Assembly: GCF_057098645.1 (NCBI RefSeq)
Contig: NZ_CM169472.1
DNA length: 64,000 bases
Strand: one strand, 5' to 3'
Made by a program: the position numbers and the translations under genes. Of this stretch, positions 3,542-41,037 are shown in pieces (positions within the stretch are counted from its first letter, which is position 1; the number at the start of each line of letters is the position of its first letter). The notes below the pieces were generated by a model. The model searched no databases and was not told the origin of the DNA. It worked only from the letters and a program-made list of their open reading frames with translations.

Positions 3542-5563
3542 ATGCGTCTAAACCCCGGCCAACAACAAGCTGTCGAATTCGTTACCGGCCCCTGCCTGGT
3601 GCTGGCGGGCGCGGGTTCCGGTAAAACTCGCGTGATCACCAATAAAATCGCCCATCTGATCCGCGGTTGCGGTTATCAGGCGCGACATATCGCGGCGGTG
3701 ACCTTTACCAATAAGGCGGCGCGCGAGATGAAAGAGCGTGTAGGGCAGACGCTGGGGCGCAAAGAGGCGCGTGGGCTGATGATCTCCACTTTCCATACGT
3801 TGGGGCTGGATATCATCAAACGCGAGTATGCGGCGCTTGGGATGAAAGCGAACTTCTCGTTGTTTGACGATACCGATCAGCTTGCTTTGCTTAAAGAGTT
3901 GACCGAGGGGCTGATTGAAGATGACAAAGTTCTCCTGCAACAACTGATTTCGACCATCTCTAACTGGAAGAACGATCTCAAAACTCCGGCGCAGGCGGCG
4001 GCAGAGGCAAAGGGCGAGCGGGATCGTATTTTTGCCCATTGTTATGGGCTGTATGATGCACACCTGAAAGCCTGTAACGTTCTCGACTTCGATGACCTGA
4101 TTTTATTGCCGACGTTGCTGCTGCAACGCAATGAAGAAGTACGCGAACGCTGGCAGAACAAAATTCGCTACCTGCTGGTGGATGAGTATCAGGACACCAA
4201 CACCAGCCAGTATGAACTGGTGAAACTGCTGGTGGGCAGCCGCGCGCGCTTTACCGTGGTGGGTGACGATGACCAGTCGATCTACTCCTGGCGCGGTGCA
4301 CGTCCGCAAAACCTGGTGCTGCTGAGTCAGGATTTTCCGGCGCTGAAGGTGATTAAGCTTGAGCAGAACTATCGCTCTTCCGGGCGTATTCTGAAAGCGG
4401 CGAACATCCTGATCGCCAATAACCCGCACGTCTTTGAAAAGCGTCTGTTCTCCGAACTGGGTTACGGCACAGAGCTAAAAGTTTTAAGCGCGAATAACGA
4501 GGAACATGAAGCCGAGCGCGTTACTGGCGAGCTGATCGCCCATCACTTCGTCAATAAAACGCAGTACAAAGATTACGCCATTCTTTATCGCGGCAACCAT
4601 CAGTCGCGGGTATTTGAAAAATTCCTGATGCAAAACCGCATCCCGTACAAAATATCCGGTGGTACGTCGTTTTTCTCTCGTCCTGAAATCAAGGACTTGC
4701 TGGCTTATCTGCGCGTGCTGACTAACCCGGACGATGACAGCGCATTTCTGCGTATCGTTAACACGCCGAAGCGAGAGATTGGCCCGGCGACGCTGAAAAA
4801 GTTGGGTGAATGGGCGATGACGCGCAATAAAAGCATGTTTACCGCCAGCTTTGATATGGGCCTGAGTCAGACGCTTAGCGGACGTGGTTATGAAGCATTG
4901 ACCCGCTTCACTCACTGGTTGGCAGAAATCCAGCGTCTGGCGGAGCGGGAGCCGATTGCCGCGGTGCGTGATCTGATCCATGGCATGGATTATGAATCCT
5001 GGCTGTACGAAACATCGCCCAGCCCGAAAGCCGCCGAAATGCGCATGAAGAACGTCAACCAACTGTTTAGCTGGATGACGGAGATGCTGGAAGGCAGTGA
5101 ACTGGATGAGCCGATGACGCTCACCCAGGTGGTGACGCGCTTTACTTTGCGCGACATGATGGAGCGTGGTGAGAGTGAAGAAGAGCTGGATCAGGTGCAA
5201 CTGATGACTCTCCACGCGTCAAAAGGACTGGAGTTTCCTTATGTCTACATGGTCGGTATGGAAGAAGGGTTTTTGCCGCACCAGAGCAGTATCGATGAAG
5301 ATAATATCGATGAGGAGCGGCGGCTGGCCTATGTCGGCATTACCCGCGCCCAGAAGGAATTGACCTTTACGCTGTGTAAAGAACGCCGTCAGTACGGCGA
5401 ACTGGTGCGCCCGGAGCCGAGCCGCTTTTTGCTGGAGCTGCCGCAGGATGATCTGATTTGGGAACAGGAGCGCAAAGTGGTCAGCGCCGAAGAACGGATG
5501 CAGAAAGGGCAAAGCCATCTGGCGAATCTGAAAGCGATGATGGCGGCAAAACGAGGGAAATAA
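3542..5563 (+). CDS. rep: ATP-dependent DNA helicase Rep (SF1)
   Basis: 673-aa product from ATG 3542 ([29 protein letters not shown]...), Walker A and UvrD/Rep helicase motifs; the ORF-track start at 3491 is an upstream extension. Confidence 0.95.
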
Positions 5564-5567
5564 TCAA

Positions 5568-5601
5568 GGCCGGAAAAGATGCGTCAGCATCGCATCCGGC
5601 A
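5568..5601. repeat. REP-like palindromic element / terminator between convergent rep and gppA
   Basis: gccggaaaagatgcgtcagcatcgcatccggc inverted repeat. Confidence 0.6.
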
Positions 5602-5609
5602 CTTACTCA

Positions 5610-7094
5610 TTAATGCACTTCCAGCGGCCAGTGGACATAGCTCTGCCACTGGCTTTCCTGAGCAATAATCTCTTTACCCAGCGGATGTTGGGTTAGCCAA
5701 CCTTGCGGAAGCGTCAAGGTCAACAGTTCATGGTTAGCCTGTAATGTCATCTCTGGCACGAGATCGTCACGGCGACGGCTGGCAAAAATGATGGCCAGGC
5801 GTAGTAAACGGCAGAGTTGTTCTGCGACGCGCGGCGGTACGGCATTTTGCTGATGCAGCGATGAGAGATCGATCGGATTAGTCTGGTTGAGCAGTAGTGT
5901 CGCCAGCAATTTTTTCTGTGCGGGGGTAAAACCGGGAAGATCCAGATTACGCACCAGATAAGCAGCGTGTTGCGGCGCTTGTTTGAAGTCAACGCTCAGG
6001 CCGATTTCATGAAGCTGACAGGCGCTGATGAGCAAATCGCGGCTTATTGCTTCAAGATGCCATTCGTTTTCCACCTGATCGAAGAAGTTAGCCGCAACTT
6101 TGGCTACGCGCTGTGCCTGATCAATATCGATCATAAAGCGGCGTTGAATATTACGCAGCGTACGGCTGCGAATATCCTGCTCGACGGCCAGATGCAACAT
6201 GCCGTAGACCAGGCCTTCACGCAGCGCACCGCCCGCCAGGGTCATACACTGAATATTCAGTTCGGTAAAAATGGCGATCAGGATCGCCAGACCACTCGGG
6301 AACACTAACGCACGTTCCAGCGTCAGCCCGTCAATCTCTAGCTCTTCCAGCCGACCGCAATGAATGGCGCGTTGTTTCAGTTGCTGCAACTTTTCCAGGG
6401 TAATGCGTTCATCCATCCCCTGTGCCATCATGATTTCCTGTAACGCCTGCACGGTGCCGGAAGCACCAACGCACACTTTCCAGCCGTGATACCGTAATTC
6501 ATCGGCAACCGGACGTAACACTTCGCGTGCCGCTTTTTCTGCAGCATCAAAATTTTCCTGCCCCAGATTACGATCGGCAAAATAGCGTTCCAGCCAGGTG
6601 ACGCAGCCCATCGACAGGCTGAACAACGAGGTGGTTTGTGCACCCGTGCCGGTTACCAGTTCAGTACTGGCTCCGCCTATATCCACCACCAGGCGCTGAT
6701 CGGCACCACCAGTGGTGTGAGCAACGCCCTGATAAATCAGACGTGCTTCCTCTTCACCGCTGATCACCTGTACCGGACAACCGAGAATTTCCTGCGCTTT
6801 GGCAATAAAATCACCCGCATTGACGGCAAGGCGTAACGTCGCCGTAGCGACAACGCGAATTTGCGAGGGAGGAATATCTTGCAGACGTTCAGCAAACAGG
6901 CGCAGACATTGCCAACCGCGCTCCATTGCTTCATTGGAGAGGGCATTTTCGCTATTCAGGCCAGCAGCCAGACGCACTTTGCGTTTTATTCGCGTCAGCG
7001 TCTGGATGCTTCCAGCCACCTCGCGCACAACCAGCATATGAAAACTATTCGAACCGAGATCAATGGCTGCATACAGCGACGAGGTGGAACCCAT
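5610..7094 (-). CDS. gppA: guanosine pentaphosphate phosphohydrolase / exopolyphosphatase
   Basis: Ppx/GppA-family [26 protein letters not shown]... N-terminus. Confidence 0.93.
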
Positions 7095-8493: not shown

Positions 8494-8623
8494 AGTGTGG
8501 TAGAATATCAGCTTACTATTGCTTTACGAAAGCGTATCCGGTGAAATAAAGTCAACCTTTAGTTGGTTAATGTTACACCAACAACGAAACCAACACGCCA
8601 GGCTTATTCCTGTGGAGTTATAT

Positions 8624-8953
8624 ATGAGCGATAAAATTATTCACCTGACTGACGACAGTTTTGACACGGATGTACTCAAAGCGGACGGGGCGATCCTCGT
8701 CGATTTCTGGGCAGAGTGGTGCGGTCCGTGCAAAATGATCGCCCCGATTCTGGATGAAATCGCTGACGAATATCAGGGCAAACTGACCGTTGCAAAACTG
8801 AACATCGATCAAAACCCTGGCACTGCGCCGAAATATGGCATCCGTGGTATCCCGACTCTGCTGCTGTTCAAAAACGGTGAAGTGGCGGCAACCAAAGTGG
8901 GCGCACTGTCTAAAGGTCAGTTGAAAGAGTTCCTCGACGCTAACCTGGCGTAA
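8624..8953 (+). CDS. trxA: thioredoxin 1
   Basis: [50 protein letters not shown]..., WCGPC active site; start ATG 8624 inside the longer track ORF. Confidence 0.96.
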
Positions 8954-10778: not shown

Positions 10779-11882
10779 GTGAATTTACTGACAGTGAGTA
10801 CTGATCTCATCAGTATTTTTTTATTCACGACACTGTTTCTGTTTTTTGCCCGTAAGGTGGCAAAAAAAGTCGGTTTAGTGGATAAACCAAACTTCCGCAA
10901 ACGTCACCAGGGATTGATACCTCTCGTTGGGGGGATTTCGGTTTACGCAGGGATTTGCTTCACGTTCGGAATTGTCGATTACTATATTCCGCATGCATCT
11001 CTCTATCTCGCTTGTGCCGGTGTGCTTGTTTTCATTGGCGCGCTGGATGACCGTTTTGATATCAGCGTAAAAATCCGTGCCACCATACAGGCCGCTGTTG
11101 GCATTGTTATGATGGTGTTCGGCAAACTTTATCTCAGTAGCCTGGGTTATATCTTTGGCTCCTGGGAGATGGTGCTCGGACCGTTTGGTTACTTCCTGAC
11201 GCTATTTGCCGTCTGGGCGGCCATTAATGCGTTCAACATGGTTGATGGCATTGATGGCTTGCTGGGCGGGTTGTCCTGCGTCTCGTTTGCAGCAATCGGT
11301 ATGATTTTGTGGTTCGACGGGCAAACCAGCCTCGCAATCTGGTGCTTTGCGATGATCGCCGCCATCCTGCCATACATCATGCTTAACCTTGGTATCCTGG
11401 GTCGCCGCTACAAAGTCTTTATGGGTGATGCGGGCAGTACGCTGATTGGTTTTACCGTGATCTGGATCCTGCTCGAAACGACCCAGGGCAAAACCCATCC
11501 CATCAGCCCGGTTACCGCTTTGTGGATAATCGCCATTCCGCTAATGGATATGGTGGCGATTATGTACCGTCGCCTGCGTAAAGGCATGAGCCCATTCTCT
11601 CCTGACCGTCAGCATATTCACCATTTGATCATGCGTGCCGGGTTTACTTCCCGCCAGGCGTTTGTGCTGATTACCCTTGCCGCAGCACTGCTCGCTTCCA
11701 TTGGCGTGCTGGCAGAATATTCTCATTTTGTCCCGGAGTGGGTCATGCTGGTGCTCTTTTTGCTAGCATTCTTCCTCTATGGATATTGCATTAAGCGTGC
11801 CTGGAAAGTTGCTCGCTTTATTAAGCGCGTAAAACGCAGACTGCGTAGAAATCGTGGTGGCAGCCCCAATTTAACCAAATAA
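10779..11882 (+). CDS. wecA: UDP-GlcNAc:undecaprenyl-phosphate GlcNAc-1-phosphate transferase
   Basis: 367-aa polytopic membrane protein (MraY/WecA family), GTG start, first gene of the ECA cluster. Confidence 0.93.
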   Translation: MNLLTVSTDLISIFLFTTLFLFFARKVAKKVGLVDKPNFRKRHQGLIPLVGGISVYAGICFTFGIVDYYIPHASLYLACAGVLVFIGALDDRFDISVKIRATIQAAVGIVMMVFGKLYLSSLGYIFGSWEMVLGPFGYFLTLFAVWAAINAFNMVDGIDGLLGGLSCVSFAAIGMILWFDGQTSLAIWCFAMIAAILPYIMLNLGILGRRYKVFMGDAGSTLIGFTVIWILLETTQGKTHPISPVTALWIIAIPLMDMVAIMYRRLRKGMSPFSPDRQHIHHLIMRAGFTSRQAFVLITLAAALLASIGVLAEYSHFVPEWVMLVLFLLAFFLYGYCIKRAWKVARFIKRVKRRLRRNRGGSPNLTK

Positions 11883-11893
11883 ATGAGGATGTG

Positions 11894-12940
11894 ATGACAC
11901 AACCAATGCCTGGGAAACCGGCCGAAGACGCTGAAAATGAACTGGATATTCGTGGGTTGTTTCGTACCTTGTGGGCTGGGAAGCTATGGATTATTGGCAT
12001 GGGGCTGGCGTTTGCGTTAATCGCGCTGGCGTATACGTTTTTTGCTCGTCAGGAGTGGAGCTCGACGGCGATTACCGATCGTCCAACGGTGAATATGCTG
12101 GGGGGATATTACTCGCAGCAGCAATTTTTGCGTAACCTGGATGTCCGTTCAAACATGGCTTCTGCCGACCAACCATCGGTCATGGACGAAGCCTATAAAG
12201 AGTTTGTTATGCAACTGGCCTCGTGGGATACCCGCAGAGAGTTCTGGCTGCAAACCGACTATTACAAGCAGCGGATGGTGGGCAACAGCAAAGCCGATGC
12301 GGCGTTGCTGGATGAAATGATTAACAACATCCAGTTTATCCCCGGAGACTTTACCCGCGCGGTCAATGACAGCGTGAAGCTTATTGCCGAAACCGCGCCT
12401 GACGCTAATAACCTGTTACGTCAGTATGTTGCTTTTGCCAGCCAGCGTGCAGCCAGCCATCTGAATGATGAGCTGAAAGGCGCATGGGCGGCACGCACCA
12501 TCCAGATGAAAGCTCAGGTGAAGCGTCAGGAAGAGGTGGCGAAAGCCATCTACGACCGCCGGATGAACAGCATTGAGCAGGCGCTGAAAATTGCTGAGCA
12601 GCATAATATTTCGCGCAGTGCGACAGATGTGCCTGCCGAGGAATTACCTGATTCAGAAATGTTCCTGCTTGGGCGTCCAATGCTCCAGGCTCGACTGGAA
12701 AATTTACAGGCCGTCGGTCCGGCCTTTGATCTCGACTATGATCAGAATCGGGCCATGTTAAACACCCTGAATGTTGGTCCAACCCTGGATCCGCGTTTTC
12801 AGACCTATCGCTATTTGCGTACGCCGGAAGAACCGGTAAAACGCGATAGCCCACGTCGTGCCTTCCTGATGATTATGTGGGGCATTGTCGGGGGGCTGAT
12901 CGGGGCTGGTGTCGCATTAACCCGCCGTTGCTCGAAATAG
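11894..12940 (+). CDS. wzzE: ECA polysaccharide chain-length modulation protein
   Basis: 348-aa Wzz-family protein with N- and C-terminal TM segments. Confidence 0.92.
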
Positions 12941-25237: not shown

Positions 25238-25314
<77 letters not shown>

Positions 25315-25371
25315 TTTAGTCCCGGCGCTTGAGCTGCGGTGGTAGTAATACCGCGTAACAAGATTTGTAGT

Positions 25372-25448
25372 GGTGGCTATAGCTCAGTTGGTAGAGCCCT
25401 GGATTGTGATTCCAGTTGTCGTGGGTTCGAATCCCATTAGCCACCCCA
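25372..25448 (+). tRNA. hisR: tRNA-His (anticodon GTG)
   Basis: canonical tRNA-His with extra 5' G, ...GATTGTGATTC... anticodon loop, CCA end. Confidence 0.95.
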
Positions 25449-25468
25449 TTATTAGAAGTTGTGACAAT

Positions 25469-25555
25469 GCGAAGGTGGCGGAATTGGTAGACGCGCTAGC
25501 TTCAGGTGTTAGTGTCCTTACGGACGTGGGGGTTCAAGTCCCCCCCCTCGCACCA
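25469..25555 (+). tRNA. leuT: tRNA-Leu (anticodon CAG), long variable arm
   Basis: 87-nt class II tRNA, anticodon loop cttCAGgtg, CCA end. Confidence 0.95.
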
Positions 25556-25597
25556 CGACTTTAAAGAATTGAACTAAAAATTCAAAAAGCAGTATTT

Positions 25598-25674
25598 CGG
25601 CGAGTAGCGCAGCTTGGTAGCGCAACTGGTTTGGGACCAGTGGGTCGGAGGTTCGAATCCTCTCTCGCCGACCA
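25598..25674 (+). tRNA. proM: tRNA-Pro (anticodon TGG)
   Basis: CGGCGAGTAGCGCAGCTTGGTAGCGCAACTGGTTTGGGACCAG... CCA end. Confidence 0.95.
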
Positions 25675-29302: not shown

Positions 29303-29499
29303 GTAGATGCTCATTCCATCTCTTATGTTCGCCTTAGTGCCTCATAAACTCCGGAATGACGCAGAGCCGTTTACGGTGCTTATCGTCCACTGACAGATGT
29401 CGCTTATGCCTCATCAGACACCATGGACACAACGTTGAGTGAAGCACCCACTTGTTGTCATACAGACCTGTTTTAACGCCTGCTCCGTAATAAGAGCAG
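29303..29499 (+). ncRNA. glmZ: small RNA GlmZ (glmS activator) with its intrinsic terminator
   Basis: recognised sequence GTAGATGCTCATTCCATCTCTTATGTTCGCC...; -10 CATAAT at 29291-29296; terminal hairpin ctgctc-cgtaataa-gagcag followed by T7 at 29493-29499. Confidence 0.8.
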
Positions 29500-29556
29500 G
29501 CGTTTTTTTATGTGTCAGGAAGGCCCCGGAGGTGCTTGCCTCCGGGTGAGAAGGAA

Positions 29557-34029: not shown

Positions 34030-36576
34030 TTGTACCTCTATATTGAGACTCTGAAACAGAGACTGGATGCCATAAATCAATTGCGTGTGGATCGCGCGCT
34101 TGCTGCTATGGGGCCTGCATTCCAACAGGTCTACAGTCTACTGCCGACATTGTTGCACTATCACCATCCGCTAATGCCGGGTTACCTTGATGGTAACGTT
34201 CCCAAAGGCATTTGCCTTTACACGCCTGATGAAACTCAACGCCACTACCTGAACGAGCTTGAACTGTATCGTGGAATGTCAGTACAGGACCCGCCGAAAG
34301 GTGAGCTTCCAATTACTGGTGTATACACCATGGGCAGCACCTCGTCCGTAGGGCAAAGTTGTTCCTCTGACCTGGATATCTGGGTCTGTCATCAATCCTG
34401 GCTCGATAGCGAAGAGCGCCAGTTGCTACAACGTAAATGCAGCCTGCTGGAAAGCTGGGCCGCCTCGCTGGGTGTGGAAGTTAGCTTCTTCCTGATTGAT
34501 GAAAACCGTTTTCGCCACAACGAGAGTGGCAGTCTGGGGGGCGAAGATTGTGGCTCCACCCAGCATATACTGCTGCTTGATGAATTTTATCGTACCGCCG
34601 TGCGTCTCGCCGGTAAGCGTATTCTGTGGAATATGGTGCCGTGCGACGAAGAAGAGCATTACGATGACTACGTAATGACGCTCTACGCACAAGGCGTGCT
34701 GACGCCAAATGAATGGCTGGATCTCGGTGGCTTAAGCTCGCTTTCTGCTGAAGAGTACTTTGGTGCCAGCCTTTGGCAGCTCTACAAGAGTATCGATTCC
34801 CCATACAAAGCGGTACTGAAAACACTGCTGCTGGAAGCCTATTCCTGGGAATACCCGAACCCACGTCTGCTGGCGAAAGATATCAAACAGCGTTTGCACG
34901 ACGGCGAGATTGTATCGTTTGGTCTCGATCCATACTGCATGATGCTGGAGCGTGTTACTGAATACCTGACGGCGATTGAAGATTTTACCCGTCTGGATTT
35001 AGTACGTCGCTGCTTCTATTTAAAAGTGTGCGAAAAGCTCAGCCGTGAACGCGCCTGCGTAGGCTGGCGTCGCGCAGTGTTGAGCCAGTTAGTGAGCGAG
35101 TGGGGTTGGGACGAAGCTCGTCTGGCAATGCTCGATAACCGTGCTAACTGGAAGATTGATCAGGTGCGTGAGGCGCACAACGAGCTGCTCGACGCGATGA
35201 TGCAGAGCTACCGTAATCTGATCCGCTTTGCGCGTCGCAATAACCTTAGCGTCTCCGCCAGTCCGCAGGATATCGGCGTGCTGACGCGTAAGCTGTATGC
35301 CGCGTTTGAAGCATTACCAGGTAAAGTGACGCTGGTAAACCCGCAGATTTCGCCCGATCTCTCGGAACCGAATCTGACCTTTATTTATGTGCCGCCGGGC
35401 CGGGCTAACCGTTCAGGTTGGTATCTGTATAACCGCGCGCCAAATATTGAGTCGATCATCAGCCATCAGCCGCTGGAATATAACCGTTACCTGAATAAAC
35501 TGGTGGCGTGGGCATGGTTTAACGGCCTGCTGACCTCGCGCACCCGCTTGTATATTAAAGGTAACGGCATTGTCGATTTGCCTAAGTTGCAGGAGATGGT
35601 CGCCGACGTGTCGCACCATTTCCCGCTGCGCTTACCTGCACCGACACCGAAGGCGCTCTACAGTCCGTGTGAGATCCGCCATCTGGCGATTATCGTTAAC
35701 CTGGAATATGACCCGACAGCTGCGTTCCGCAATCAGGTGGTGCATTTCGATTTCCGTAAGCTGGATGTCTTCAGCTTTGGCGAGAATCAAAATTGCCTGG
35801 TAGGTAGCGTTGACCTGCTGTACCGCAACTCGTGGAACGAAGTGCGTACGCTGCACTTCAACGGCGAGCAATCGATGATCGAAGCCCTGAAAACTATTCT
35901 CGGCAAAATGCATCAGGACGCCGCACCGCCAGATAGCGTGGAAGTCTTCTGTTATAGTCAGCATCTGCGCGGCTTAATCCGTACTCGCGTGCAGCAACTG
36001 GTTTCTGAGTGTATTGAACTGCGTCTTTCCAGCACCCGCCAGGAAACCGGACGCTTCAAGGCGCTGCGCGTTTCTGGTCAAACCTGGGGGTTGTTCTTCG
36101 AACGCCTGAATGTATCGGTACAGAAACTGGAAAACGCCATCGAGTTTTATGGCGCGATTTCGCATAACAAACTGCACGGCCTGTCAGTGCAGGTTGAAAC
36201 CAATCACGTCAAATTACCGGCGGTGGTGGACGGCTTTGCCAGCGAAGGGATCATCCAGTTCTTTTTCGAAGAAACGCAAGACGAGAATGGCTTTAATATC
36301 TACATTCTCGACGAAAGCAACCGGGTTGAGGTGTATCACCACTGCGAAGGCAGCAAAGAGGAGCTGGTACGTGACGTCAGTCGCTTCTACTCGTCATCGC
36401 ATGACCGTTTTACCTACGGCTCAAGCTTCATCAACTTCAACCTGCCGCAGTTCTATCAGATTGTGAAGGTTGATGGTCGTGAACAGGTGATTCCGTTCCG
36501 CACAAAATCTATCGGTAACATGCCGCCTGCCAATCAGGATCACGATACGCCGCTATTACAGCAGTATTTTTCGTGA
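34030..36576 (+). CDS. cyaA: adenylate cyclase (class I), TTG start
   Basis: 848-aa [50 protein letters not shown]... Confidence 0.95.
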
Positions 36577-36615
36577 TGAACGTGCCGGAAAGCGAGGCTT
36601 ATCCGGCATGCAATC

Positions 36616-36936
36616 TTAGCGGAAACTGACTGTTTCACCCGCCTGCTGCGTCGCCGCCTGTTCCAGCAAATCCCAGAAGGTTTCGCCGCTGCGATCGCAA
36701 ATCCACTCATCGCCTTTCAGATCAAAATGGTAGCCGCCTTGTTTGGTTGCCAGCCATACCTGGTGCAGCGGTTCCTGGCGGTTGATAATGATTTTGCTGC
36801 CATTCTCAAAGGTAATGGTCAGCACGCCGCCGTTGATTTCGCAGTCGATATCGCTGTCGCCATCCCAGTCGTCCAGACGCTCTTCAATGGTCAGCCACAG
36901 TTGATCAGCCAGGCGATGAAATTCACTGTCGTTCAT
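36616..36936 (-). CDS. cyaY: frataxin homolog CyaY (iron-sulfur cluster assembly)
   Basis: 106-aa [36 protein letters not shown]... Confidence 0.93.
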
Positions 36937-36983
36937 TGTTGTATCCTGTTTTTAAGTGATGGCGGCAGTATAGCGGCATGGGG

Positions 36984-38309
36984 TCAGGGCTTCAAAGTTT
37001 GCACCTCTGCGGCTGCGTTACGGCATGATTCATCCGTCAACGGAATAATAATGTCTCTGTTGTGAAGTTCGCGCACATTCTCTTCTCTGACGCGTGTTTT
37101 CGCCGGGCAGGGGGAGGGTGTAATCCTTACCTCTGTATCGGTCCATGTATAAACATTGCGATCGTCATAAGCGAAGCGATCGTTTTTAGTTAGCGGACCG
37201 TTAACTGGAATAATTTGCACGCTCTTTGACCGTAATTGGCGGATAAAATAAGCATGCTGTTTGCCGCTATTAAATGAGTGATCAATGACCAGGTCTGGCG
37301 TATCCAGCGGGATTATCTCAAGCTGGTCTTCACCAAATGTCGATAATTTTGTTACATACAACCGATCTTTATATTGCGCAATATTGCCAGTAATCAGATG
37401 AAATTGTTCAGGTTCAATACCTGGTAGGTCTATCCACTTGCTCCACTGACGGTCGGGCGTGAGCTGTTTACGCCAGCGAACGCGACTTTCCCCTACTTCA
37501 AAAGAGACGTCATCATCTACGGGTATCGCTTTGCCAGACAATTGCCCAAAGGGATAACGATGCAGACCCTTATTGTCGCGAAAAACCAGCAGTGAATGAG
37601 GTATCCAGCGAATTATCTCAAATGAGTCTGCATTCGCTGTAAGGTGAACGGCATTTAAATAAATATTCTGCCCACTGCGGATAAGCAGATCATTGGAATA
37701 CAAATTTCTGTTTACACTCATAAGACGTGGATTAATACCCCACCATCTTTTTTCTAATACAGTAACATTATTGCTGCTCCCCTGACGTCGACCGGACAAA
37801 TAGAGATTTTTACTATCCACCAGCGTGGTAGAGTTACCTTCGATAGCTTTTAGTGTCGCCAGATCAACACGTGACGCGCCGCTATTACTTTCGGTGCGCT
37901 GTCCATCAAAATAGAGGCTATATTTATCGACCGCGAAGCGGCCCATAGCCTGAAAGCTGGCAATATCGACAGTGGGTGTTCCCGGTGGATTGCTAACGAT
38001 TTTGCCACGCCAGAGAATAACGCGGCCGTCTGTCACCCAGTGGTATTCCTCATTTTTTATGCTTATTTCATCAGTGGGTATATAGCCTTCCACTAACTCC
38101 CGCTCCCCGGATATATTTGTCACAAGGCGCAAATCGGCTCTGTTCATCTTCGGAAATTGGGCAATGATTTTCTCATCCTCCCCATAACCTTTACCGTAAG
38201 ACATAACACCGTGATCATTGTAATAGTCGAACCCTATGGCCTGTGCAGCAGGTGTCAGAAATGTGTGCCCCAACAGGATGAGTGCAACTGTGATTATTTG
38301 ACCCTTCAT
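36984..38309 (-). CDS. secreted repeat protein with DKNYY-like motifs (paralog A), Sec signal peptide, function unknown
   Basis: 441-aa ORF; N-terminus MKGQIITVALILLGHTFLTPAAQA; repeated D-x-N-x-VY-type motifs (DDRNVYTWTD, DKYSLYFDGQRT); clear paralogy with the upstream ORF; ATGA start/stop overlap at 38306-38309. Confidence 0.7.
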   Translation of the reverse strand: MKGQIITVALILLGHTFLTPAAQAIGFDYYNDHGVMSYGKGYGEDEKIIAQFPKMNRADLRLVTNISGERELVEGYIPTDEISIKNEEYHWVTDGRVILWRGKIVSNPPGTPTVDIASFQAMGRFAVDKYSLYFDGQRTESNSGASRVDLATLKAIEGNSTTLVDSKNLYLSGRRQGSSNNVTVLEKRWWGINPRLMSVNRNLYSNDLLIRSGQNIYLNAVHLTANADSFEIIRWIPHSLLVFRDNKGLHRYPFGQLSGKAIPVDDDVSFEVGESRVRWRKQLTPDRQWSKWIDLPGIEPEQFHLITGNIAQYKDRLYVTKLSTFGEDQLEIIPLDTPDLVIDHSFNSGKQHAYFIRQLRSKSVQIIPVNGPLTKNDRFAYDDRNVYTWTDTEVRITPSPCPAKTRVREENVRELHNRDIIIPLTDESCRNAAAEVQTLKP

Positions 38310-39814
38310 TTTGTCGCCTCATTGCGCGGGGCAGGAATAAATTCGCCGTCATCGGTAATTTTTCCGTCCAGATATCCCGTTTTGTAATTTACCCCGTAGC
38401 CATATCCCGAATGTTGTTCCTTCCAGATTAAGCGAACTTGTTTCGGATCAGCGGTGCGGTATCGCCAGAGCTGCGCGCCATCAAAGCTGTAAACGTAGCG
38501 GTTATCGCGGGCATACCATCTGCGCAAAAAGGGATGGTCATTAAGATGGGCTTCGCGTTCATCCGGAGAACGGTTATCCAGTAAGAGCAGCGGTCCGTCA
38601 GATTCAAACACGTGTAAACCGGAATGGTATGGCCACCCTTCGGCACGCGTAAGTAAATAGCCGTGGCGTTTCCCGGCGTTGAAACGTTTGTTGATAATAA
38701 GATTGGGATCATCAAGTTTCACGATCTCCAGCTTGCGGTCACCAGACTCTGTTTCGATGATGGTATAAAGCGAGTCCTGATACTGTGCGACAGCATCACT
38801 GATGGGGTGAAACTGTTCCGGATCGAGTCCCGGTAATTCTTCCTGTTTACAGTCAGGCCCCTGACGCCAGAACACTTTCTTTTCCAGCAGAGAAAAATCC
38901 AGACAGTGCTTTGTTAAATCCTCATCCCACGCCAGATTTTCCTTGTCGAGGACTTTACGCTGTAGCCCGTTTTTATCACGCCAGGTCAAGAGTGAGCCGG
39001 GCATCCAGCGCACGACGGAAAAGGTGTCCGGGTCGGCAACAAGCTGTTCACCGTTGATCAGGATTTTGGTCCGTGTACGAGCCAGGGTATCCCAGGGGCC
39101 GAATGGTACGGCAACGCAGGGGTTAAACGTGGTGGAAAACTTTCCTCGCTGATCCCAGGACTTCTGCGCCAGCACACGGAAACTCTCGGGGTCAGCGAGG
39201 CGATGCCCATTGATATACAAGAAATTAGCGTCACGTAATATCAGCCCCAGTAAGTCAGGAGCCCAGGGAGGCCGGAATTCCACCTGATGCAGCGTTTTGA
39301 TATCTAAGCTATTTCTCCCACCATTGTCATCGGTGCGCTTGCCTTCAAAATAGAGACTGTGTTTATCTGCAGCAAAATCACCCCATGCCTTGAACGAGGC
39401 GACATCGACGGGAGGTGTGCCGGGAGGGTTTTGCACAACTTCACCCGCGTAGAGGATATTGCGACCATCGCTATACCAGGAATAATGAGGATACCAGGCC
39501 TGTGCGCCCTCATAGAGGTAGTCGGTTGTCAAATCAGTCTGAGGCGGTTCTTTATCCCATTCGTCTAGTGTTGTCGGGTCTATTAATAAATTGGGTAACC
39601 GACGCAAACTCTTGTAATTCACGTCAGGTAGAGAAAGATTTGTTTCTTTATAAGGGCGCAGGTACACCACGCCTTTTCCCTGTTTCTGGTAAATATTATG
39701 TTCAGGTGCGGAAAGCCGACATCCCCATGCCGATGATAAGACCAATGAACAAGCCAACAAACAAACCACATTGCGATAGTGCATAAAGCCATCCTGGCGC
39801 GAGGTGCCGATCAC
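38306..39814 (-). CDS. secreted or lipoprotein repeat protein with DKNYY-like motifs (paralog B), function unknown; true start may be the internal ATG at 39784
   Basis: 502-aa ORF; hydrophobic N-terminus VVCLLACSLVLSSAWGC; shares NPPGTPxVDxASFxAxGxFAxDKxSLYFxGxRT and LPGxxPEQFH blocks with paralog A. Confidence 0.7.
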   Translation of the reverse strand: MIGTSRQDGFMHYRNVVCLLACSLVLSSAWGCRLSAPEHNIYQKQGKGVVYLRPYKETNLSLPDVNYKSLRRLPNLLIDPTTLDEWDKEPPQTDLTTDYLYEGAQAWYPHYSWYSDGRNILYAGEVVQNPPGTPPVDVASFKAWGDFAADKHSLYFEGKRTDDNGGRNSLDIKTLHQVEFRPPWAPDLLGLILRDANFLYINGHRLADPESFRVLAQKSWDQRGKFSTTFNPCVAVPFGPWDTLARTRTKILINGEQLVADPDTFSVVRWMPGSLLTWRDKNGLQRKVLDKENLAWDEDLTKHCLDFSLLEKKVFWRQGPDCKQEELPGLDPEQFHPISDAVAQYQDSLYTIIETESGDRKLEIVKLDDPNLIINKRFNAGKRHGYLLTRAEGWPYHSGLHVFESDGPLLLLDNRSPDEREAHLNDHPFLRRWYARDNRYVYSFDGAQLWRYRTADPKQVRLIWKEQHSGYGYGVNYKTGYLDGKITDDGEFIPAPRNEATK

Positions 39815-39972
39815 GAAACTATCAGCAAAACATAAATCCCTACGAGTAAGCGTTATACTCGCAGCATTTCCTCACTTTTCAGACTTCATAAAGAGTCGCT
39901 AAACGCTTGCTTTTACGCCTTCTCCTGCGATGATAGAAAGCAGAAAGCGATGAACTTTACAGGCAATCCATA

Positions 39973-40176
39973 ATGAAAAACGTGTTTAAGGCACTCACTG
40001 TATTACTTACTCTCTTCAGCCTGACGGGCTGCGGTCTGAAAGGTCCGCTCTATTTCCCGCCTGCAGATAAAAACGCACCGCCGCCGACCAAACCGGTAGA
40101 GACGCAAACGCAATCCACGGTGCCGGATAAAAACGACCGCGCCACTGGCGATGGTCCATCCCAGGTGAATTACTAA
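39973..40176 (+). CDS. yifL: small lipoprotein
   Basis: 67-aa ORF MKNVFKALTVLLTLFSLTGCGLKGPLYFPP... with lipobox LTGC, immediately upstream of dapF. Confidence 0.88.
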   Translation: MKNVFKALTVLLTLFSLTGCGLKGPLYFPPADKNAPPPTKPVETQTQSTVPDKNDRATGDGPSQVNY

Positions 40177-40212
40177 AAGTCAGTTTCTGTACCCGCGTGA
40201 TTGGAGTAAATG

Positions 40213-41037
40213 ATGCAGTTCTCGAAAATGCATGGCCTTGGCAACGATTTTATGGTCGTCGACGCGGTAACGCAGAATGTCTTTTTTTCACCGGAGCTGA
40301 TTCGTCGCCTGGCGGATCGGCACCTGGGGGTAGGGTTTGACCAACTGCTGGTGGTTGAGCCGCCGTATGATCCTGAACTGGATTTTCACTATCGCATTTT
40401 CAATGCTGATGGCAGTGAAGTGGCGCAGTGCGGCAACGGTGCGCGCTGCTTTGCCCGTTTTGTGCGCCTGAAAGGGCTGACCAATAAGCGCGATATCCGC
40501 GTCAGCACCGCCAACGGGCGGATGGTTCTGACCGTCACCGATGATGATCTGGTCCGCGTAAATATGGGCGAACCCAACTTCGAACCTTCCGCTGTGCCGT
40601 TTCGCGCTAACAAAGCGGAAAAGACCTACATTATGCGCGCCGCCGAGCAGACAATCTTATGCGGCGTGGTGTCGATGGGAAATCCGCATTGCGTGATTCA
40701 GGTCGATGATGTCGATACCGCGGCGGTAGAAACGCTTGGTCCTGTTCTGGAAAGCCACGAGCGTTTTCCGGAGCGAGCCAATATCGGTTTTATGCAAGTG
40801 GTTAAGCGCGAGCATATTCGTTTACGCGTTTATGAGCGTGGGGCAGGAGAAACCCAGGCCTGCGGCAGCGGCGCATGTGCGGCGGTGGCGGTAGGGATTC
40901 AGCAAGGTTTGCTGGCCGAAGAAGTACGCGTGGAACTCCCCGGCGGTCGTCTTGATATCGCCTGGAAAGGTCCGGGTCACCCGTTATATATGACTGGCCC
41001 GGCGGTACATGTCTACGACGGATTTATTCATCTATGA
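40213..41037 (+). CDS. dapF: diaminopimelate epimerase
   Basis: 274-aa [20 protein letters not shown]... with both catalytic Cys regions. Confidence 0.95.

Follow-up and report, generated by a model that had tools for sequence, protein, structure and literature searches.

An ancestral, strain-variable pair of DKNYY-like paralogs at the lptM-cyaY junction of Escherichia coli, predicted to be exported to the cell envelope

Gene organization

The subject of this study is a pair of adjacent paralogous genes, here called P1 and P2, in a stretch of 64,000 nucleotides (nt) from NCBI RefSeq assembly GCF_057098645.1, contig NZ_CM169472.1. This whole stretch is called the window below. The local gene order is cyaA (plus strand), cyaY (minus), P2 and P1 (both minus), lptM, also named yifL (plus), dapF, yigA and xerC. 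Over 3.8 kb (window 36500-40300) the sequence matches E. coli O145 strain RM9872 with 100% identity, and the window is ordinary E. coli chromosome. An earlier note, made from the sequence alone, had described two minus-strand open reading frames (ORFs) of 502 and 441 amino acids (aa) overlapping by ATGA, and both are present. The features of the pair are as follows.

38306..39784, minus strand: P1, a 492-aa probable outer-membrane lipoprotein, DKNYY-like (ORF list; RefSeq coding sequence WP_022581283.1, identical start)
38306..39814, minus strand: maximal ORF of P1, 502 aa counted from GTG 39814
36984..38309, minus strand: P2, 441 aa, predicted soluble periplasmic paralog of P1 (ORF list; RefSeq coding sequence WP_000678262.1)
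38306..38309, minus strand: ATGA overlap, formed by the stop codon of P1 (TGA) and the start codon of P2 (ATG), read from the sequence
38320-38317, minus strand: ribosome-binding site of P2, GAGG within P1, 7 nt upstream of the P2 ATG
39785..39972, no strand: divergent spacer between P1 and lptM, 188 bp

The likely start of P1 is ATG 39784, because AGGA at 39795-39792 lies 7 nt ahead of it, homologues in other genera begin at the equivalent methionine, and RefSeq uses the same start. Inspection of the sequence upstream of GTG 39814 revealed nothing resembling a ribosome-binding site. With P1 starting at ATG 39784, the divergent spacer to lptM measures 188 bp, not the 158 bp given previously. 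By the ATGA overlap and the GAGG site inside P1, the two genes qualify as a putative translationally coupled operon, as had been proposed. Neighboring paralogs in four other loci (L005, L014, L015 and L018) likewise overlap or sit at most 29 nt apart.

Paralogy and selection

BLASTP aligned P1 and P2 with 36% identity over 322 residues (E 3e-62). All the blocks on which the earlier claim of clear paralogy was based, i.e., NPPGTPxVDxASF..DKxSLYF.G.RT, ADPxSF..RW.P.SLL..RD..GL.R and LPGxxPEQFH, fall within this alignment, and the claim holds. Selection was examined by comparing the window with three other E. coli alleles using Nei-Gojobori counting, which gave the following ratios of nonsynonymous to synonymous substitution rates (dN/dS).

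P1: dN/dS 0.12-0.21, dS up to 0.51
P2: dN/dS 0.16-0.32, dS 0.08-0.11
cyaY, dapF and most lptM and yigA comparisons: dN/dS 0-0.05, dS 0.01-0.28
yigA (window against L026): dN/dS 0.16, and lptM (window against L002): dN/dS 0.32, both at dS 0.01-0.02, with too few substitutions to be informative

The dN/dS values of 0.12-0.32 therefore identify P1 and P2 as genuine protein-coding genes under purifying selection. This selection is weaker than that on the housekeeping neighbors. In E. coli, P1 occurs in at least two deeply diverged allele classes, with 86-87% amino acid identity between classes. Both reading frames are intact in lineages that differ by 8-10% in DNA (O145, W224N and WS0115A in RefSeq), and Nissle 1917 has a full-length match to the locus with two annotated coding sequences. 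The corresponding clusters at 90% identity contain 3,125 and 4,059 member sequences.

Ancestry and repeated loss of the locus

The order lptM, family genes, cyaY is also found in E. albertii, Citrobacter, Pseudocitrobacter, Phytobacter, Klebsiella spallanzanii and an enterobacterium (L005). Because this synteny spans several enterobacterial genera, the two-gene state is ancestral and the state in E. coli K-12 is derived. When the K-12 locus was compared with the window by blastn, its flanks matched window positions 36500-37060 and 39628-40300, which leaves a single gap.

37061..39627, no strand: K-12 deletion, 2,567 bp, also missing in most other E. coli

K-12 keeps a remnant in which some 62 codons from the 5' end of P1, degenerate and interrupted by a stop and a frameshift, are joined to the last 26 or so codons of P2. 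In RefSeq this junction is recorded as a pseudogene named 'DKNYY family protein'. REL606 exemplifies another remnant class, in which megablast detected the 5' fragment of P1 alone. The existence of two remnant classes implies at least two independent deletions.

At least 80% of P1 and P2 is retained in 1,394 of 5,426 complete E. coli genomes (26%), and some part of the region was matched in all but one or two of them. Carriers include Nissle 1917, O145, O26 and many avian pathogenic E. coli (APEC) and commensal lineages; the pair is absent from K-12 and O157:H7. This survey bears out the earlier description of a strain-variable operon, but the direction implied there, an extra operon at a K-12-like junction, has to be reversed. 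The locus is ancestral and dispensable, as follows from the synteny, the K-12 remnant and its retention in only 26% of the complete genomes.

Recent horizontal insertion was rejected in view of the cross-genus synteny and of the K-12 remnant, which retains both gene ends. Nor was there evidence of plasmid carriage: the plasmid matches obtained with tblastn were chromosomes filed as plasmids or short remnants. The PLSDB records NZ_OL790696.1 and NZ_CP141089.1, for instance, are 4.8-4.9 Mb long and evidently chromosomes. The K-12 gene name yzcX does not denote this gene; it seems to stand for an ORF called within the remnant, where the P1 remnant occupies the other strand. The yzcX remnant corresponds to window positions of about 36940-37060 joined to 39628-39972. 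Published descriptions place yzcX divergently to cyaY (PMC12288877) and count it with genes for membrane proteins (PMC7414163).

The taxonomic range of the family is narrow. A profile of 15 family sequences, searched against 1.84 billion representative proteins, retrieved 131 representatives at E<=1e-3, about 20 of them full length. A scan of one genome from each of 100,044 species gave 13 loci, 12 of which are in Enterobacterales (Escherichia, Citrobacter, Pseudocitrobacter, Phytobacter, K. spallanzanii and Leminorella). The 13th locus (L011, JAIJJM010000270.1) lies on a 4-kb contig labeled 'MAG: Collinsella sp.' with 96% protein identity and is almost certainly a mis-binned E. coli contig.

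Locus variants and pairing of protein types

The locus exists in at least four forms in E. coli: the remnant only; P1 with P2, as in the window; a DUF3304 gene with P1 and P2; and a DUF3304 gene with a single 685-aa fusion. In the fusion, the C-terminal domain of P2 is appended to a complete P1. Fusions of 670-685 aa occur in Salmonella, E. albertii, Pseudocitrobacter and some E. coli, and a fusion of 670-675 aa is the standard form in Salmonella and E. albertii. Larger arrays are also found. The enterobacterium L005 has four tandem paralogs in the order lipoprotein, signal-peptidase-I type, signal-peptidase-I type, lipoprotein, and Escherichia sp. MOD1-EC7003 has three. In L005, a DUF3021 membrane protein and a PAP2 phosphatase are encoded between the array and cyaY (11471-12598), and in Salmonella records a family remnant adjoins a DUF3021 gene.

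Pairs are not restricted to the lptM-cyaY junction. They occur between cycA and ytfE in E. albertii (L021-L023) and E. whittamii (L022), and in a transporter/fimbrial region of Pseudocitrobacter vendiensis (L020); one E. coli record has a 32%-identical copy elsewhere. Each of the examined enterobacterial loci with at least two copies (the window, L005, L014, L015, L018, L020 and L021-L023) encodes at least one lipoprotein-type and at least one signal-peptidase-I-type member, and neighboring genes in these loci overlap or are no more than 29 nt apart. Because of this pairing of a lipoprotein with a soluble protein, the gene overlap and the natural fusions, we propose that the P1 and P2 types act together. 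The fusions in particular are a Rosetta-stone-type indication that the two may share a function.

Export signals and predicted localization

Signal sequences were read at the N-termini of both proteins, in agreement with the earlier note, which had suggested that one of the two may be a lipoprotein.

39719..39784, minus strand: P1 signal peptide, MHYRNVVCLLACSLVLSSAWG with predicted cleavage before C, then CRLS; Cys22 is the predicted lipidation site
38238..38309, minus strand: P2 signal peptide, MKGQIITVALILLGHTFLTPAAQA with predicted cleavage before IGF; signal-peptidase-I type with AQA cleavage motif, no cysteine

A cysteine directly after the signal is present in all P1-type relatives that were aligned or read, and its conservation is the chief reason to regard P1 as a lipoprotein. 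The lipobox is AWGC in Escherichia, Salmonella, Citrobacter and K. spallanzanii, and ALAC, SMAC, AQAC, SLAC or SIAC elsewhere. The tryptophan at position -2 of the E. coli lipobox is atypical, and more distant members (ALAC, AQAC, SLAC) fit better. Because of this unusual residue, we rate lipidation of P1 as probable only. In the Lol sorting pathway, an aspartate at position +2 causes retention in the inner membrane. P1 has an arginine at this position, so sorting to the outer membrane is predicted.

Soluble-type homologues have signals similar to that of P2, with predicted cleavage after AQA (before I or T), IQA (before E), VQA (before K) or ALA (before A). They also share a conserved C-terminal pair of cysteines, CPA...C, which is consistent with a disulfide bond in the oxidizing periplasm. 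A role of P1 and P2 in the cell envelope is plausible.

Relationship to the DKNYY family

The earlier note described both proteins as DKNYY-like (PF13644). Searched individually, P1 and P2 gave independent E-values of 1.5 and 0.014, respectively, which do not reach the threshold of 0.001, and neither protein had a match in NCBIfam or PADLOC. At the level of the family the relationship became visible. Three of 15 aligned members matched PF13644 at E<=1e-3 and eight of 15 at E<=0.1 (best 9.9e-6). Moreover, the profile of the 15 family sequences retrieved canonical DKNYY-repeat proteins with E-values of 1e-13 to 1e-4. One of these, P0123 (E 1.4e-13), is rich in 'YAKDKNNVYY' units, and in another protein, P0086, four or five canonical DKNYY repeats come after the family core. 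The membership claim is thus sustained by the family-level profile and not by P1 or P2 on their own. P1 and P2 belong to a remote, divergent branch of the DKNYY family, and in this sense the label 'DKNYY-like' is right.

A hidden Markov model (HMM) of the canonical repeat located the best units.

39335..39409, minus strand: best DKNYY-type unit of P1, aa 126-150, VDVASFKAWGDFAADKHSLYFEGKR; domain E 3.6e-6
37899..37970, minus strand: best DKNYY-type unit of P2, aa 114-137, VDIASFQAMGRFAVDKYSLYFDGQ; domain E 9.7e-6, predicted local distance difference test score (pLDDT) above 90

Residues 126-150 of P1 form the most conserved and most confidently modeled block of the family. The repeated D-x-N-x-V-Y motifs noted earlier thus come down to one good DKNYY-type unit in each protein, the remaining units being degenerate according to the repeat HMM. 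Common to PF13644 and to P1 and P2 is the unit x-D-x-x-(S/T)-F ... (A/Y)-x-D-K-x-x-(L/V)-Y-(F/Y)-x-G. The P1/P2 branch differs from PF13644 by an N-terminal beta domain and a C-terminal domain with WRK, LPGxDPEQFH and AQYQDRLY motifs that are unique to it, by having one well-kept repeat per protein, by its near-confinement to Enterobacterales and by its lipoprotein-plus-soluble pairs.

In public databases the proteins are already catalogued but unstudied. Existing names are 'DKNYY family protein', 'Lipoprotein' and 'hypothetical protein', and RefSeq lists many alleles as 'DKNYY family protein'. Literature searches for DKNYY, PF13644 or a cyaY/yifL island found nothing relevant, in line with the earlier statement that the family has no known function.

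Structure prediction

AlphaFold2 models based on family alignments were all-beta for both P1 (pLDDT 74.3, predicted template modeling score (pTM) 0.65) and P2 (pLDDT 82.5, pTM 0.70). Foldseek searches of AFDB50 returned family members only, labeled 'DKNYY family protein' or 'Lipoprotein', and the family profile had no match among PDB sequences even at E 10. We conclude that the proteins have no relative of solved structure and that nothing hints at an enzyme fold. Pfam, NCBIfam, PDB-sequence and Foldseek searches gave no link to a well-characterized enzyme family; such a link would have contradicted the earlier note. The closest known systems include BamB and TolB, which are periplasmic or lipoprotein beta-propeller scaffolds, but no significant structural match to solved propellers was found.

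Divergent spacer and promoters

The 188-bp spacer between P1 and lptM was aligned for seven loci from at least four genera. The lptM-proximal half (39880-39972, ...ctttctgctttctatcatcgcaggagaaggcgtaaaagcaagcgtttagc...) is near-invariant in Escherichia, Citrobacter, Pseudocitrobacter, K. spallanzanii and L005; the P1-proximal half is variable across those loci. The invariant block is probably the lptM promoter or leader. For P1, a consensus scan gave no consensus sigma-70 site, and site counts were no higher than in shuffled sequences. The scan did identify a site at the other end of the pair.

36967..36995, minus strand: sigma-70-like site TTGAAG-17-TATACT, overlapping the last P2 codons, upstream of cyaY

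This site is the probable cyaY promoter, and the piece containing it is kept in the K-12 deletion remnant. The 3' end of P2 would survive in K-12 because this presumed promoter sits there, which suggests that the cyaY promoter constrains the possible deletion endpoints. A scan of the window with Rfam gave no RNA family match in or near P1 and P2. The matches elsewhere in the window were the GlmZ small RNA (29303-29509), the 5' untranslated region thermometer of trxA (8554-8653) and a cluster of four tRNAs (25238-25671).

A neighboring immunity gene

In about 1,117 complete E. coli genomes, P1 is directly preceded upstream by a DUF3304 gene on the same strand.

L002 (E. coli APEC E19025), 5140-5694: DUF3304 gene, absent from the window, where it would fall between 39784 and 39972

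DUF3304 is the Tli1 family of immunity proteins for Tle1 phospholipases (PMC13133936). The protein encoded next to P1 is 68% identical to one inside a VgrG-DUF4123-DUF3304-Tle1-VgrG island of E. coli ST131. Given its family and this identity, the gene upstream of P1 is an orphan immunity gene. The DUF3304 segment is flanked by 171-bp direct repeats that are 89% identical and correspond to the P1 promoter and 5' region, and it also carries a short remnant of the C-terminal domain of another paralog. Recombination between the 171-bp repeats would leave the form found in the window.

Interpretation and alternative explanations

To account for these observations, we favor the explanation that P1 and P2 are a functional, co-expressed envelope pair that forms a non-enzymatic periplasmic binding module and belongs to a small Enterobacterales branch of the DKNYY family, and we would put the chance that it is correct at about even. 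The ATGA overlap would couple translation of the two genes. P1 would be exported and anchored by a lipid at Cys22 to the inner leaflet of the outer membrane, in view of the arginine at position +2, and P2 would be exported by a cleavable signal and remain soluble in the periplasm. Both proteins would be all-beta structures built of degenerate DKNYY-type hairpin units, in which a short beta domain at the N-terminus precedes a DKNYY-like central region and a C-terminal domain with the WRK, LPGxDPEQFH and AQYQDRLY motifs. The two would work jointly, probably as a heterodimer, as the binding module. Our best guess is a protective or niche-specific role in the envelope, not a housekeeping one.

Several points weigh against this explanation. 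Cleavage by signal peptidase I after AWG would fit the tryptophan at position -2 of P1 too. Single-copy members exist (Leminorella L004, P0086 and P0089), so the pair is not obligatory, and the heterodimer is deduced solely from gene order and fusions. P2 is frameshifted in some carriers, e.g., APEC E19025. The lack of a recognizable catalytic motif was judged by eye in an alignment of 15 to 29 sequences, and the literature searches yielded neither experimental nor expression evidence.

One alternative casts P1 and P2 as orphan immunity proteins that counter periplasm-acting toxins of type VI secretion systems (T6SS) or other contact-dependent toxins, with lptM-cyaY serving as an immunity-gene array that would shield the cell from attacking competitors. 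We consider this unlikely, even though much about the locus is immunity-like: the adjoining orphan Tli1 gene, the predicted periplasmic location, the diverged tandem paralogs (up to four), the high P1 dS of 0.4-0.5 and the frequent loss. Both proteins carry the export signals predicted to place them in the compartment where such toxins act, and immunity proteins that are outer-membrane lipoproteins exist, e.g., Tli3 (PMC9860674). Like P1 and P2, Tli1 and other members of orphan immunity arrays are periplasmic or outer-membrane lipoproteins, occur as diverged tandem paralogs and vary between strains. Nevertheless, none of the nine distinct contexts long enough to judge has an effector beside a family member. 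These contexts include lptM-cyaY, cycA-ytfE, Pseudocitrobacter L020, Leminorella, P0086, P0089 and P0099; three further metagenome contigs, reached through P0090, P0100, P0092 and P0087, are too short and were left out of the count. The closest approach is that of P0089, which has a VgrG-Rhs array about 1 kb away; the two are on opposite strands, and an unrelated gene separates them. An HMM search found no family member in the ST131 Tle1 T6SS island. An immunity family should also include effector-linked copies; the P1/P2 family comprises only about 20 full-length clusters at 50% identity among 1.84 billion representative proteins, and no effector-linked homologue was found in the contexts examined. 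DUF3304 proteins have no sequence or fold relationship to P1 and P2 and are much shorter (about 180 aa as compared to 440-500 aa); such a length and the conserved pairing of a lipoprotein with a soluble protein are unusual for immunity proteins. Finally, the DUF3304 segment seems to have taken the place of an older paralog at a later time, so that its position next to P1 may be incidental. A related and equally doubtful idea is that the pair is a new two-component periplasmic defense module, in which an outer-membrane-anchored protein and its soluble paralog, with a fold absent from the PDB, neutralize an incoming toxin that attacks the envelope, e.g., a T6SS effector.

That P1 and P2 are decaying relics without current function, merely not yet deleted, seems improbable to us. 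At least two different deletions have removed the locus from 74% of complete E. coli genomes, E. coli and Shigella commonly have copies that are frameshifted or fragmentary, and dN/dS is several-fold above that of most neighboring genes. Against decay, values of 0.12-0.32 over dS up to 0.5 reflect sustained purifying selection, the frames are intact across the lineages that are 8-10% diverged and full length in Nissle 1917, and conservation extends across genera with signal peptides and ribosome-binding sites retained. We give similarly little credence to a surface-exposed or secreted factor for interaction with hosts or phages, for instance one that resembles an adhesin or masks a receptor. 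A lipoprotein anchor, a repeat-built beta architecture, strain-variable presence, the two deep P1 allele classes (86-87% aa identity) and carriers that span pathogenic and probiotic lineages (O145, O26, APEC, Nissle 1917) would suit such a factor. However, no surface-export machinery is encoded nearby, P2 has a Sec signal only, a PHROG- or defense-type context was not seen, and dN/dS well below 1 does not point to diversifying selection across the gene as a whole. A functional tie to the divergent neighbor LptM, which acts in maturation of the lipopolysaccharide translocon, with a role of the pair in outer-membrane biogenesis, is in our view highly improbable. The head-to-head order with lptM is kept across genera, the shared spacer is partly invariant, and both partners are predicted to be outer-membrane or periplasmic proteins; still, paralog pairs are found at unrelated junctions (cycA-ytfE and the transporter/fimbrial region), most E. 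coli lack the pair yet retain lptM, and the invariant part of the spacer adjoins lptM and is accounted for by its own promoter.

Significance

What this analysis adds is the start of P1, the direction of the K-12 deletion, the lipoprotein-plus-soluble pairing and the natural fusions, along with the very narrow taxonomic range, the lack of a solved structural relative and the orphan Tli1 gene next to the pair. Otherwise the case is ordinary, with no sign of an unusual mechanism. If the defense module existed, the lptM-cyaY junction would be a long-lived enterobacterial hotspot for orphan immunity that also captured a Tli1 gene. If instead the envelope binding pair that we favor has a protective or niche-specific role, P1 and P2 would confer a strain-variable trait, one that laboratory E. 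coli could never reveal, given the absence of the pair from K-12. It would also be a first functional entry point to the DKNYY repeat family, in which no member has been studied and no structure solved.

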